Shown: positions 11,967 to 60,739, counted from the stretch's first letter. The stretch is 64,000 bases of DNA from Promethearchaeota archaeon (GCA_019058295.1 JAHPZI010000021.1:105167-169166), one strand, 5' to 3'. A program made the numbers and translations. Notes: a model not told the origin generated them from the letters alone.

Positions 11967-12135
11967 TTATATTACTTCCTATATTCTTATACTTTCTTAA
12001 ATTATTTTCATTATAGAGTTATCTTATTTAAATATTTTTTTAAAAAACAAATCAGAATAACGATATTGAAAAATTAAATAAATTTTTATTCAAACATCGA
12101 TTATTTATAGAATTAAATAAAAATTAGGTGAAATT

Positions 12136-12636
12136 ATAATTAAAGTCTTAGTTACTTATTTTTCTCAAACGGGAAATACTAAAAAGATTGCTGAAGCGAT
12201 ATTTGAGGAAATTCAAACAGAAAAAGAAATTAAACCGCTTAAGGAAGTCGATGATCTTGAGGGATACGACTTTTCTTTTATTGGATTTCCTATACATTCA
12301 GGTGGACCAACCAAAAGGGCAGCAGATTTTATTAAAAAAAATGCTATCGATAAGAAAATAGCTCTGTTCGTCACCCATGCAATGCCAGCGGATTATGATA
12401 TGCTTCCGGGTTTATTAAATAGATGCGAAAAATCTGCAAGAAAAGCAGACCTAAAGGGATTTTTTGACTGTCAAGGGGAGCTCGCTGAAAAAGTAGCTCA
12501 AATGTTGTTAAAAAGTGGAAATCCTCAATTGGAATTATTTGGGAAAATGCGTGATGTGACTGTTGGTCATCCAAATGCGGATGAAATTGAGAGTGCTCGT
12601 AATTTTGCTAAAGAAACAATAGAAAAGTTTAAGTAA
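12136..12636 (+). CDS. Flavodoxin-like protein; no canonical start codon (ATA 12136 or ATT 12133/12139 proposed)
   Basis: The frame opens after TAA 12118-12120. It reads (I)IKVLVTYFSQTGNTKKIAEAIFEEI... with the FMN loop S/T-x-TGNT at 12154-12180. The first in-frame ATG is at 12382, which is the track ORF 12382-12636. An SD-like GGTGA lies at 12127-12131. Confidence 0.75.
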   Translation: MIKVLVTYFSQTGNTKKIAEAIFEEIQTEKEIKPLKEVDDLEGYDFSFIGFPIHSGGPTKRAADFIKKNAIDKKIALFVTHAMPADYDMLPGLLNRCEKSARKADLKGFFDCQGELAEKVAQMLLKSGNPQLELFGKMRDVTVGHPNADEIESARNFAKETIEKFK

Positions 12637-12656
12637 TTAAAAAAGGAGATTTTTTT

Positions 12657-57840: not shown

Positions 57841-60057
57841 GTGAAAATTATGAATGATGAAAAAAAAAATCCTGTATTGGGCAAGATGAAGAGGCCAACA
57901 GCCGGTGGTGGCACGACTATCCAAGACTGGTGGCCGAACCAGTTGAATCTCGATATCCTACACCAACATTCCTCTAAATCTAATCCAATGGACGATGATT
58001 TCGATTATGCCAAGGAGTTCAATAGTCTCGATTATGAGGCATTGAAGAAAGATCTCGCGGAAATAATGAAAAAGTCCCAAAGTTGGTGGCCAGCGGATTT
58101 TGGTCATTATGGTCCTTTGTTCATCCGTATGGCATGGCACAGTGCTGGTACCTACCGTGTCGGGGATGGTCGTGGCGGGGGTGGCAGTGGAAATCAACGC
58201 TTCCCCCCTCTCAGTAGCTGGCCTGATAATGTTAACCTCGACAAAGCACGTCGGTTACTTTGGCCAATCAAGAAAAAATATGGTCGAAAAATCTCCTGGG
58301 CTGACTTGATGATTCTCGCGGGTAACGTTGCCTTAGAATCGATGGGTTTTAAAACCTTCGGTTTCGGTGGTGGGCGTGAAGATATCTGGGAACCAGAAAA
58401 GGATACTTACTGGGGCTCTGAGGAAGAATGGTTGGGTGATGAACGCTGGCACACAGGCGATAAAGATAAACCTGATCTCGAAAACCCGCTCGCAGCCGTG
58501 CAGATGGGTTTGATTTACGTCAATCCAGAAGGTCCAGACGGTAATCCTGATCCCGTTCTGGCGGCGAAGGATATTCGCGAGTCTTTTGGGCGTATGGCTA
58601 TGAATGATGAGGAGACGGTGGCACTCATCGCAGGTGGCCACACATTCGGAAAATGCCATGGTGCTGGTCCCGCAGATCATGTGGGACCCGAGCCTGAAGC
58701 GGCAGATATAGAAGATATGGGACTAGGTTGGAAGAGTAACTATGGTTCAGGCAAAGGTGCCGACACGATAAGTAGTGGTCTGGAAGTCACCTGGACTACC
58801 ACTCCCACGAAATGGAGTAGCAACTTCTTTTGGAACTTATTTGGTTTTGAATGGGAATTGACAAAGAGTCCTGCTGGCGCGCATCAGTGGACACCAAAGG
58901 GTGGTGCGGGTGCTGGTACCGTACCAGATGCACATATCCCAGATAAACGCCATGCACCATCTATGCTAACCACCGACCTTTCTCTACGGTTCGATCCTAT
59001 ATACGAAAAGATTTCACGACGCTTTATGGAGAATCCAGATGAATTTCAGGAAGCGTTTGCAAGAGCATGGTTCAAGCTGACTCACCGTGACATGGGTCCA
59101 CGATCTCGTTATCTAGGGCCGGAAGTTCCTCATGAAGAACTCATCTGGCAGGATCCAATCCCACCAGTAGATCACAAACTAGTTGATGAAAAGGACATTG
59201 CCTCAATCAAGAGTAAGATCCTATCATCTGGCCTTTCTGTCTCGGAACTAGTTTCGACTGCCTGGGCATCGGCATTCACGTTCCGTGGCTCAGACAAACG
59301 CGGTGGTGCGAACGGAGCTCGGATTCGTCTAGCACCACAGAAGGATTGGGAGGTTAATCAACCTGACCAGTTAGCGAAGGTTCTCAAAACCTTGGAAAGC
59401 ATTCAAGCTGAATTCAATGGAGCACAGTCTGATAACAAGAAGATATCACTTGCTGATTTGATCGTTCTGGCTGGTTGTGCAGGTATTGAGCAAGCTGCAA
59501 AAAATGCTGGTAATGAAGTAAAGGTTCCCTTTACACCAGGACGAATGGATGCATCACAGGAGCAAACAGATGAAAAATCTTTCGCCGTTCTCGAACCCAT
59601 AGCGGATGGCTTCCGCAACTACCAGAAAACTAAATATGCCGTATCAGCTGAGGAAATTCTGGTTGACAAAGCGCAATTGTTAACTCTAACCGCCCCCGAA
59701 ATGACAGTGCTCGTGGGTGGCTTACGCGTCTTGAAGACCAACTTTGGAGGAACGCAGCATGGTGTTTTCACTAAACGACCTGAGGCGCTTACAAATGACT
59801 TCTTTGTGAATCTGCTCGATATGAACACAACATGGAAAGCAACTAATGAAGATAAAACCTTATTTGAGGGGCATGATATTGAAACAGGTGAACTTAAGTG
59901 GACAGCCACTCGTATTGATCTCATCTTCGGCTCGAACTCCCAACTAAGGGCATTAGCAGAAGTATACGGTAGTGATGACGGTCAAGAGAAGTTCCTGAAC
60001 GACTTTGTAGCAGCTTGGAATAAAGTTATGAACTTAGATCGTTTCGATCTCGCATAG
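57841..60057 (+). CDS. katG: Catalase-peroxidase KatG
   Basis: [29 protein letters not shown] and [10 protein letters not shown] are present across the two-lobe length of 738 aa. The likely true start is ATG 57850 or 57886. GC is far above the flanks. Confidence 0.95.
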
Positions 60058-60247
60058 TGGTTTAATAGGCTCCCTGGTATCAGCAGCATCCCCAGACTTG
60101 GTAATATTGATATAAATAAAACTACAGGCGTATAGAAAAAAAAGTAGATAATTCCATTTTAAAATTACATTTTTTTTTATTAACTAGGAAGAAAATATAA
60201 ATTGTAAGCAATTCAATTTATTAGGAACACTAAAGTAGTGAAATATT

Positions 60248-60739
60248 ATATATCAATCCGAGAAAAACTCTGATCTCCCAGAAGAAGGATCTAGTAACTC
60301 TGAACTAGAAAATAATGAGCCTGAAAATTTAAATAAGGAGGATGAGAAAGAGCGCAATAAATATGTCAGAGGATTATATTTTACTGGGGGTATCATTTGT
60401 TTAAGTTTAGGAATTATAGGAATACTTTTACCTATTTTACCTACTACCCCTTTTCTTTTACTTGCCGCAGGATGCTTTTCTAGAAGTTCTAAAAGATTTT
60501 ATAATTGGTTATTAAACAACAGGATTCTTGGCTCATATATTAGAAACTTTAGAGAAGGAAAAGGAATGCCTATAAAAGTTAAAATTTTTACAATTTCTAT
60601 GTTATGGATAACAATTCTTTTAACATCGTTCATTTTTATTCAAATTATATGGATTAGATATGTACTAATCATCATTGCTATTGCTGTGACAATTCATATT
60701 ATTTTAATTCGCCCAAAAAAAAAAAAGAGTAAAAGTTAG
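60248..60739 (+). CDS. DUF454 (YbaN)-family small membrane protein; no canonical start (ATT 60245 / ATA 60248 proposed)
   Basis: Absent from the ORF track. The frame opens after TGA 60239-60241. It reads ...GLYFTGGIICLSLGIIGILLPILPTTPFLLLAAGCFSRSSKRFYNWLL..., the hallmark DUF454 core. The first in-frame ATG is at 60566. TAG at 60737-60739. Confidence 0.6.
   Translation: MYQSEKNSDLPEEGSSNSELENNEPENLNKEDEKERNKYVRGLYFTGGIICLSLGIIGILLPILPTTPFLLLAAGCFSRSSKRFYNWLLNNRILGSYIRNFREGKGMPIKVKIFTISMLWITILLTSFIFIQIIWIRYVLIIIAIAVTIHIILIRPKKKKSKS

Follow-up and report, generated by a model that had tools for sequence, protein, structure and literature searches.

The 64-kb stretch of DNA analysed here (GCA_019058295.1, JAHPZI010000021.1:105167-169166; hereafter the window) belongs to a Promethearchaeota archaeon and carries several genes in which conserved N-terminal motifs precede any canonical start codon, i.e. 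any ATG, GTG or TTG. Open reading frames (ORFs) were listed from stop to stop, each with its first canonical codon, and candidate ATT or ATA starts were found in four firm and up to seven of about 52 genes. The GC content is 26-41% per 4-kb bin and mostly about 28%. Since the closest homologues of the BcrAD/HgdC-type activase 2 (BcrAD2) and of the flavodoxin are found in metagenome-assembled genomes (MAGs) of Promethearchaeota, Lokiarchaeia and Helarchaeota, and since TFB, three Roadblock/LC7 genes and a Sar1/Arf-like GTPase are also encoded, we assign the window by its gene content to a low-GC (about 28-29%) Lokiarchaeia-type Asgard archaeon (Promethearchaeota). The features concerned, with predicted start codons, are listed below; loci from other assemblies are designated by L and a number.

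12126-12131, plus strand: Shine-Dalgarno (SD) motif AGGTGA of the flavodoxin gene, conserved in sequence and spacing in relatives
12139-12636, plus strand: flavodoxin coding sequence, most likely start ATT 12139, alternatives ATA 12136 and ATT 12133
25664-26305, plus strand: Sar1/Arf-like GTPase coding sequence, start ATA 25679 (GTGA + 7 nt) or ATT 25664 (AGGAG + 9 nt)
28402-29088, plus strand: zinc-ribbon-like protein, weak candidate, start ATA 28402, 6 nt after GGTGG; TTG 28435 is a viable canonical alternative
32300-32689, minus strand: REC (single-domain response regulator) coding sequence, start ATA 32689
49466-49933, minus strand: universal stress protein (USP) coding sequence, start ATT 49930 (AGGTGA + 6 nt) or ATA 49933 (+ 3 nt)
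49937-49942, minus strand: SD motif AGGTGA of the USP gene, whose TGA doubles as the frame-closing stop
56842-56850, plus strand: G-rich SD motif GGAGGGGGA of BcrAD2, within the end of BcrAD1 and 7 nt before ATA 56858
56858-57640, plus strand: BcrAD2 coding sequence, start ATA 56858
60245-60739, plus strand: DUF454/YbaN-like membrane protein coding sequence, start ATT 60245 or ATA 60248

Conserved N-termini upstream of the first canonical codon

A preliminary description of the window had proposed that essential N-terminal motifs of six genes precede the first ATG, GTG or TTG, and our Pfam and solved-structure alignments agree for all six; its coordinates of closing stops, ATA codons and first canonical codons were likewise reproduced from the stop-to-stop ORFs. 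Counted in ORF residues, the Pfam domains begin at residue 10 (flavodoxin), approximately 6-16 (GTPase), 6 (REC), 4 (USP), 13 (BcrAD2) and 43 (DUF454), in each case before the first canonical codon, which stands (counted from 0) at index 87, 17, 21, 7, 24 and 108, respectively. An in-frame ATA before the domain start in all six genes is expected by chance with P ~7e-4, an in-frame ATA or ATT with P ~0.04. We graded flavodoxin, REC, BcrAD2 and DUF454 as firm candidates on the strength of these alignments, GTPase and USP as moderate and the gene at 28402 as weak.

The flavodoxin frame is closed by TAA 12118 and reaches its first canonical codon, ATG 12382, only at codon 87; an open frame of that length before the first ATG has a chance probability of ~7e-4. 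Position 1 of the Pfam model Flavodoxin_3 corresponds to ORF residue 10. Thirteen orthologues (59-81% identity) start with MKVLVTYFSQTGNT or close variants, and their initial M matches the third Ile of the window sequence E-I-I-I-K-V-L-V. This Ile is encoded by ATT 12139, not by ATA 12136, which the preliminary description had listed; its caveat that the exact initiation codon was uncertain was justified. The DNA around the start reads ATTAGGTGAAattataATTaaagtc in the window, ATTAGGTGAAacaaaaATGaaagta in L095 (GCA_019058445.1) and TTAGGTGAAacaaaaATG in L098, or, in short form, ATTAGGTGAAattataATT in the window versus ATTAGGTGAAacaaaaATG in L095. Thus, ATTAGGTGAA followed by 6 nt is kept in L095, while L098 has TTAGGTGAA and an ATG at equal spacing: the SD motif and its spacing are common to all three loci and the start codon alone differs. 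Over the 81 codons that precede the first ATG of flavodoxin, the rates of non-synonymous and synonymous substitution (dN/dS) are 0.109/0.94 against L095 and 0.083/0.55 against L098 (ratios of 0.12-0.15), no higher than in the next 60 codons. The segment before the first ATG is under purifying selection.

BcrAD2 belongs to an otherwise intact HgdAB/activase operon. Its frame is closed by TAG 56831, the GIDIGS motif lies at 56870-56887 and the first canonical codon, TTG 56906, follows downstream of it; position 2 of the Pfam model BcrAD_BadFG is ORF residue 13. Orthologues begin with MVFAGIDIGS or MPFAGIDIGS, in which the M corresponds to ATA 56858, and the N-termini of solved HgdC-type activases fall within 2 residues of the same codon. 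ATA 56858 is located 1 nt past the BcrAD1 stop (TAA 56854-56856), so that the junction reads TAAaATA in the window versus TAGaATG in L081 (longer: GGGGGAacaTAAaATAgta versus GGGGGAgtaTAGaATGcct). In L081, GGGGGA + 7 nt precede the ATG, the same as before the window ATA. The TAAaATA junction is also present in L082, L083 and L097, the last of which (311-415) keeps the ATA and has gained a GTG 3 codons upstream, a possible compensatory start. Three more distant MAGs (L084-L086, 78% identity; L084 9986-10003) have ACG at the homologous codon, then an ATA, and no canonical codon before the same downstream TTG. For L084, the NCBI record MHA1291753.1 (from a pipeline that we infer to be PGAP) annotates a later ATA as start (MDVGS...), whereas JGI chose the TTG. 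The start codon of this gene varies between ATG, GTG, ATA and ACG across relatives at 78-93% identity. Over the 16 codons before the TTG, window and L084 differ by 6.5 synonymous and 5.5 non-synonymous changes (dN 0.18, dS 0.84).

Such substitutions could also mean that the genes are decaying, their starts lost by AT-biased mutation and drift, and that they are pseudogenes in the making. The changes indeed run from GC to AT (ATG to ATA or ATT), the affected genes differ between relatives, and the window contains other debris, an AMP-binding_C fragment at 32290-31976. Yet none of the six genes has a frameshift or an internal stop, the flavodoxin N-terminus evolves at the low ratio given above with SD motif and spacing conserved before ATT 12139, and BcrAD2, a component of an otherwise intact operon, has persisted with a conserved coding sequence while a canonical start is missing in the window, L082 and L084-L086, i.e. 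down to 78% amino-acid identity. L097 keeps the ATA as well, though with its GTG 3 codons upstream. We consider decay distinctly unlikely.

In the response regulator, TGA 32698 closes the frame, the first canonical codon is TTG 32632, and position 1 of the Pfam model Response_reg is ORF residue 6. The M1 of the solved Pyrococcus CheY (6er7, MARVLVVDD) matches exactly the Ile encoded by ATA 32689 (I-ASIFIVEDE), whereas a start at TTG 32632 would strip the beta1 strand and the acidic pair. As in BcrAD2, the gap to the upstream gene is 1 nt (histidine-kinase stop TAA 32693-32691), and a GGAG lies 10 nt upstream of the ATA.

The DUF454/YbaN-like gene is open from its closing stop TGA 60239 over 108 codons to ATG 60566 (chance probability ~1e-4). 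Position 1 of the Pfam model is ORF residue 43. From the closing stop to this domain start, no in-frame ATN codons occur other than ATT 60245 and ATA 60248, which lie 3 nt and 6 nt, respectively, downstream of an SD-like GTGA (60238-60241). A full HMMER scan showed that homologues often carry a hydrophilic N-terminal extension of 10-45 amino acids; the 40-residue acidic extension of the window protein is therefore normal. The out-of-frame ATG 60363 combined with a frameshift was tried as an alternative start and rejected: the main frame contains no stop in the 40 codons before it (P ~0.035 by chance), homologues are extended, and the nearest SD motif (AAGGAGG) is 22 nt away.

For the GTPase (closing stop TGA 25637, first canonical codon GTG 25691), KIFVTGFFNSGKST aligns with KLVFLGLDNAGKTT of SAR1, and the beta1 strand, KLVFLG in SAR1 and KIFVTG here, is cut by the GTG. 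The structure alignment makes the protein Sar1/Arf-like and not MglA-like, as it had been called before. In the USP gene, whose closing stop is TGA 49939, a start at the first canonical codon (TTG 49915) would drop YKKI of beta1; position 2 of the Pfam model Usp is ORF residue 4. The sequence VMYKKIL of MJ0577 (1mjh) aligns with IIYKKIL of the window, and ATT 49930 matches M4 of the MJ0577 chain. A near-cognate start of USP is moderately supported, as had been suggested; by SD spacing and by the match to M4, ATT 49930 fits no worse than the codon listed then, ATA 49933.

A seventh case, also proposed earlier, is the gene at 28402. It gains support from the GGTGG and from the alignment of its I(ATA)LKE with M(62995)LKD of a paralogue; it is weak, since a protein started at TTG 28435 would still contain the conserved CPxCK core. 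The two paralogues (28369-29088 and 62911-63534) have in common the core CPxCK...VCxHxFQxFIDKxFKVRGYQKVD without any Pfam match and, judged by this core, form a lineage-specific zinc-ribbon-like family.

All these frames could instead be translated from the first downstream ATG, GTG or TTG to give shortened proteins, the upstream frame being incidental. Canonical codons are indeed available 4-11 codons past the ATT or ATA in GTPase (GTG 25691), USP (TTG 49915) and the 28402 gene (TTG 28435), and public gene calls have exactly the downstream-start forms. The costs, however, would be severe elsewhere: flavodoxin would be deprived of 78 of 160 domain positions, among them the loop that binds the phosphate of flavin mononucleotide (FMN), DUF454 of 66 of 115 domain positions, BcrAD2 of the GIDIGS phosphate-1 motif, and REC of its beta1 and acidic pair. 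The upstream segments are moreover conserved as protein with low dN/dS, and frames of this length would rarely stay open by chance (P ~1e-4 to 7e-4). Downstream starts may thus be used in GTPase, USP and the 28402 gene and would destroy flavodoxin, REC, BcrAD2 and DUF454; as a general explanation we regard them as unlikely.

Authenticity of the sequence and public records

Each ATT or ATA differs from ATG by a single base, as would be expected if errors of assembly or consensus had altered ATG codons. To judge this, independent assemblies are informative. Logan contigs of run SRR14802572, found by look-up of the truncated protein products, agree with the window at 100% identity over 23499-34544, 47067-50336 and 6805-13580 (21 kb) and span five sites: flavodoxin, GTPase, 28402, REC and USP. 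This independent assembly of the reads shows the ATA and ATT codons unchanged at all five. At BcrAD2, the same ATA occurs in L082 (GCA_019058335.1), a different MAG with 97.4% DNA identity to the window, in L083, a Logan contig of another run, and in L097, a JGI contig with 92% amino-acid identity; these come from other organisms or samples, and relatives have ATT in yet other genes. An exact look-up of the 57-aa DUF454 stub gave no match, and 60245-60250 is without an independent-assembly copy. Because of the identical Logan contigs and the shared BcrAD2 codon, assembly error is excluded at these sites, the DUF454 site aside, and overall we give it hardly any weight. It had been argued that ATG in orthologues would point to such errors. 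Orthologues do have ATG; since independent assemblies and several related genomes keep ATA or ATT, the orthologous ATG locates the start and does not imply an error.

Public records contain truncated forms of flavodoxin (a stub of 84 aa), REC (89 aa), GTPase (204 aa) and USP (149 aa). Of ten candidate full-length sequences, in which four of the six proteins are represented by two possible starts each, not one occurs among about 15 billion public proteins.

The same state in relatives

ATT also replaces ATG in genes that have a canonical start in the window. Two URO-D paralogues of L095, with a stop 1-7 codons upstream, carry ATT where the window has ATG 4159; their N-termini are I-NSRERILASINHKEPD and I-YSRERVLTAINHKEPD versus M-NSRERILAAINHKEPD in the window, and the public calls begin 7 and 26 codons downstream of the ATT. 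L098 and L099 (L098 5299-6600, minus strand) have GGTGAT + 6 nt + ATT at the position of the window ATG, and a new ATG 7 codons downstream is a possible compensatory start. Similarly, the HgdB-like gene of L081 reads AGGTGA + 6 nt + ATT-aat-tcc-cat-aaa versus ATG-agt-agc-cat-aaa in the window (ATG 54671). Among the closer relatives, about 4 of 57 genes are in this state when the genes used to fetch each locus are excluded; all frequency estimates refer to the ~64-kb window and ~90 kb from relatives. In L100 (73% identity, 33% GC), canonical starts were found in 23 of 23 genes inspected, and because this locus shows no case, the trait is patchy among relatives. Five short metagenome loci from a TFB-protein scan contained no REC, GTPase or 28402 orthologues, and a chimeric protein query of GTPase, REC, USP and DUF454 returned one irrelevant match.

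As a side observation, an Endonuclease_7 gene measures 76 aa with 57 open codons upstream in L098 (11114-11344) and 157 aa in the near-identical L099 (8883-9356), which may be another start-codon or frameshift difference.

Ribosome-binding context and possible coupling to upstream genes

We scored SD matches within 15 nt of the start, with the anti-SD at the 3' end of the 16S rRNA assumed from general archaeal knowledge. A match of at least 4 nt precedes 7 of 7 ATT/ATA candidates versus 19 of 45 canonical-start genes (Fisher P = 0.01), and a match of at least 5 nt precedes 7 of 11 near-cognate cases, including four from relatives that were scored by eye, versus 9 of 45 canonical ones (P = 0.008); with small counts and the best of several candidate codons picked, these statistics are supportive only. 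The strongest matches of the window are AGGTGA (flavodoxin) and AGGTGAT (USP). The candidate codons are preceded by motifs complementary to the anti-SD, such as AGGTGA, GGAGG and GTGA; the spacing is 6-7 nt in six of the seven candidates, and in REC a GGAG is located 10 nt upstream. A recurring layout of a GGTGA-type SD, 6-7 nt and ATT or ATA is present in flavodoxin, USP, BcrAD2, GTPase (ATA 25679) and DUF454 (ATA 60248), and the same is seen in L081 HgdB and the L095 and L098 URO-D genes. The window URO-D gene has its ATG behind a degenerate GATGA, whereas the L098 orthologue has ATT behind GGTGAT, a contrast that appears consistent with a trade-off between SD strength and start-codon strength.

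In the remaining 26 of the 45 canonical-start genes, no SD match within 15 nt reaches a length of 4 nt, and these genes may be leaderless or differently initiated. SDs were described as not prevalent in Prometheoarchaeum (PMC7531240), a remark with which the 19 of 45 found here fits.

Among the candidates, a stop-start gap of 1 nt occurs in REC and BcrAD2, and BcrAD2 of L081 is arranged alike (TAGaATG). The string ATAAAATAG shared by both junctions is not enriched (5 found versus 4.1 expected).

Interpretation

At three genes the near-cognate codon occupies the start position of orthologues: flavodoxin (ATT 12139), BcrAD2 (ATA 56858) and REC (ATA 32689, compared with 6er7). In our view the findings are probably explained by SD-assisted or termination-coupled initiation at AUU or AUA in roughly 8-13% of genes, these codons having arisen from ATG under AT-biased mutation. 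The small subunit would be placed by SD pairing or by the terminating ribosome, the initiator Met-tRNA would pair with the AU of AUU or AUA with the mismatch at the third position tolerated, and full-length proteins would begin with Met, probably at reduced yield. On the evolutionary side, ATG would have been substituted repeatedly by ATA or ATT under the AT-biased mutation of a genome of about 28% GC, and its loss would be tolerated or buffered where SD or coupling is strong. The earlier proposal of initiation at ATA or ATT fits the comparative evidence best; the ATA that it listed for flavodoxin is not the homologue of the orthologous ATG, and its 28402 case is weak.

Several points weigh against near-cognate initiation. 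The support is comparative sequence evidence throughout. For GTPase, USP, DUF454 and the 28402 gene, the codon was assigned from domain boundaries and SD spacing only, and in three of these (GTPase, USP and 28402) a canonical codon is available that would leave a product shortened and not obviously dead. ATA and ATT make up 3.8% and 6.2% of codons, so that a nearby in-frame ATN alone is weak evidence. The assumed anti-SD, the small and selected SD counts and the uniformly canonical starts of L100 belong here as well.

A frequency far above that of well-studied prokaryotes could also suggest a special decoding device, namely an initiator tRNA modified at C34 (agmatidine- or f5C-like), a second initiator tRNA, editing of AUA, or a +1 frameshift that fuses BcrAD1 to BcrAD2. 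The G-run and SD before the BcrAD1 stop resemble frameshift stimulators, and a tRNA-based mechanism is not contradicted by the window, in which there are no tRNA genes. Both ATT and ATA are used, however, and modification of a single anticodon would not easily account for this; internal ATA and ATT correspond to Ile, Val or Leu in orthologues (M in at most 8%), and the BcrAD2 orthologues stand as genes by themselves, with an ATG at the corresponding position. We know of no archaeal mRNA editing that makes AUA resemble AUG. Special decoding is not required by the findings and strikes us as improbable. A reassignment of AUA to Met was rejected, because internal ATA aligns with I, V or L in 92-98% of orthologue residues (M 1-8%). 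Recoding of TGA, the closing stop in four of the six genes, was set aside: this codon ends 6 of 52 genes, and with table 11 all ORFs read through intact.

Extending the proposed SD-assisted or coupled initiation to the lineage, we arrive at a more tentative picture, for which we see a little less than an even chance: a low-GC Lokiarchaeia clade would have genome-wide relaxed start stringency, AUU or AUA would be the sole start of about one main ORF in ten, usually with a strong SD or coupling, and start codons would turn over fast between ATG, GTG, ATA, ATT and ACG.

Comparison with known systems

In E. coli, infC and pcnB start with AUU, and table 11 lists ATT, ATC, ATA and CTG as alternative initiators. 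Of about 4,300 E. coli genes, just a few have such AUU starts (approximately 0.1% or less), and the AUU of infC is part of an autoregulatory loop of IF3. The window genes resemble infC and pcnB in an SD-led near-cognate AUN start that would be read by the normal initiator tRNA with Met as first residue and lowered expression, these last features being predicted here. They differ in frequency (about 8-13% of the genes sampled over 64 kb), in their unrelated functions, in the ATG of close orthologues, and in that the host is an archaeon with aIF1/aIF2-type initiation. An autoregulation of the infC type was rejected, since the affected genes encode a flavodoxin, a GTPase, a receiver, a USP, an activase and a DUF454 protein, and none an initiation factor.

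AT-rich reduced genomes, namely those of mitochondria and of Mollicutes using code 4, have AUA, AUU and AUC starts, and many mitochondria read AUA as Met. Very AT-rich DNA, the frequent replacement of ATG by ATN and an origin in mutation bias would be common to these and to the window. Unlike in mitochondria, internal ATA stays Ile here, and the lineage is a free-living archaeal one with a gene repertoire of normal size.

In prokaryotic operons, termination-reinitiation coupling is known from classical pairs that restart at ATG or GTG. REC and BcrAD2 are like such pairs in that they start 1 nt past the upstream stop, with TAG-a-ATG in an orthologue, and unlike them in that the restart would occur at ATA; the four or five other candidates are uncoupled.

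In eukaryotes, near-cognate initiation is gated by eIF1 and eIF5. Ribosome profiling of Haloferax volcanii placed about 30% of putative alternative sites at near-cognate codons, which were set aside as possible false positives (PMC7261190). Initiator pairing with one mismatch and stringency set by an eIF1/aIF1-type factor would be common to these systems and ours. There, near-cognate codons mostly serve upstream or alternative ORFs, whereas here they would be the sole start of the main ORF.

The closest precedent is a single Asgard gene. For the tubulin AtubA in a Kariarchaeaceae (Heimdallarchaeia) MAG, a "rare ATT start codon" was proposed, as the deposited protein is without the first beta-strand and an upstream ATT at plausible ribosome-binding-site distance restores it (Sci Adv 2026, PMC13394414). 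The reasoning from a missing N-terminus to an upstream ATT in an Asgard gene is the same as ours; that case concerns one gene, a mention in a methods section and another Asgard class, whereas we describe many genes in at least five related genomes with homology to ATG. Full-text literature searches returned no systematic description of ATT or ATA starts in Asgard archaea and AtubA as the only mention. Near-cognate AUU and AUA starts as such are already known; what is new is their frequency and their recurrence across related genomes with ATG-to-ATT/ATA homology.

Gene callers restricted to ATG, GTG and TTG truncate such genes, and inventories of Asgard proteins, structure predictions and searches for eukaryotic signatures inherit the errors, as exemplified by AtubA (PMC13394414). 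If the proposed initiation is true, about 10% of the proteins in such MAGs would be truncated or missing in public catalogues, and AUU or AUA would be the only start of a main ORF tens of times more often than in well-studied prokaryotes, and this among the closest archaeal relatives of eukaryotes. How the fidelity of initiation evolved, with stringency set by eIF1/aIF1-type factors, could then be tested in cultured relatives, and the lineage would offer an example of a trade-off among AT-biased mutation, SD strength and start-codon strength. The expected protein N-termini would be (M)KVLVTYFSQTGNTK, (M)VFAGIDIGSLTGK and (M)ASIFIVEDELAILQ.

Other features of the window

An 81-codon ORF at 15742-15987 has no canonical start; its first codon is an ATA immediately behind the TAATAA with which an MFS transporter gene terminates. 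It was not counted as a candidate, as it is hydrophobic, of low complexity and without a Pfam match, and it is probably no gene.

The ORF 57787-60057 encodes a KatG catalase-peroxidase that is 70-83% identical to proteins of many bacterial phyla. The KatG block has 41% GC versus about 27-33% around it, relatives carry other genes downstream of BcrAD2, and the contig loci matched by KatG (L001-L080) are bacterial and without synteny to the window. KatG probably entered this Asgard genome by recent transfer from bacteria.

Between TFB and the REC gene, a 104-codon ORF (31976-32290, minus strand) matches the C-terminal AMP-binding_C domain only and looks like a gene fragment. Three Roadblock/LC7 genes (23855-24328, 24391-24756 and 26301-26759) surround the Sar1/Arf-like GTPase in a cluster at 23855-26759, which is followed by a gene for a HEAT-repeat/GNAT protein (26884-28359).

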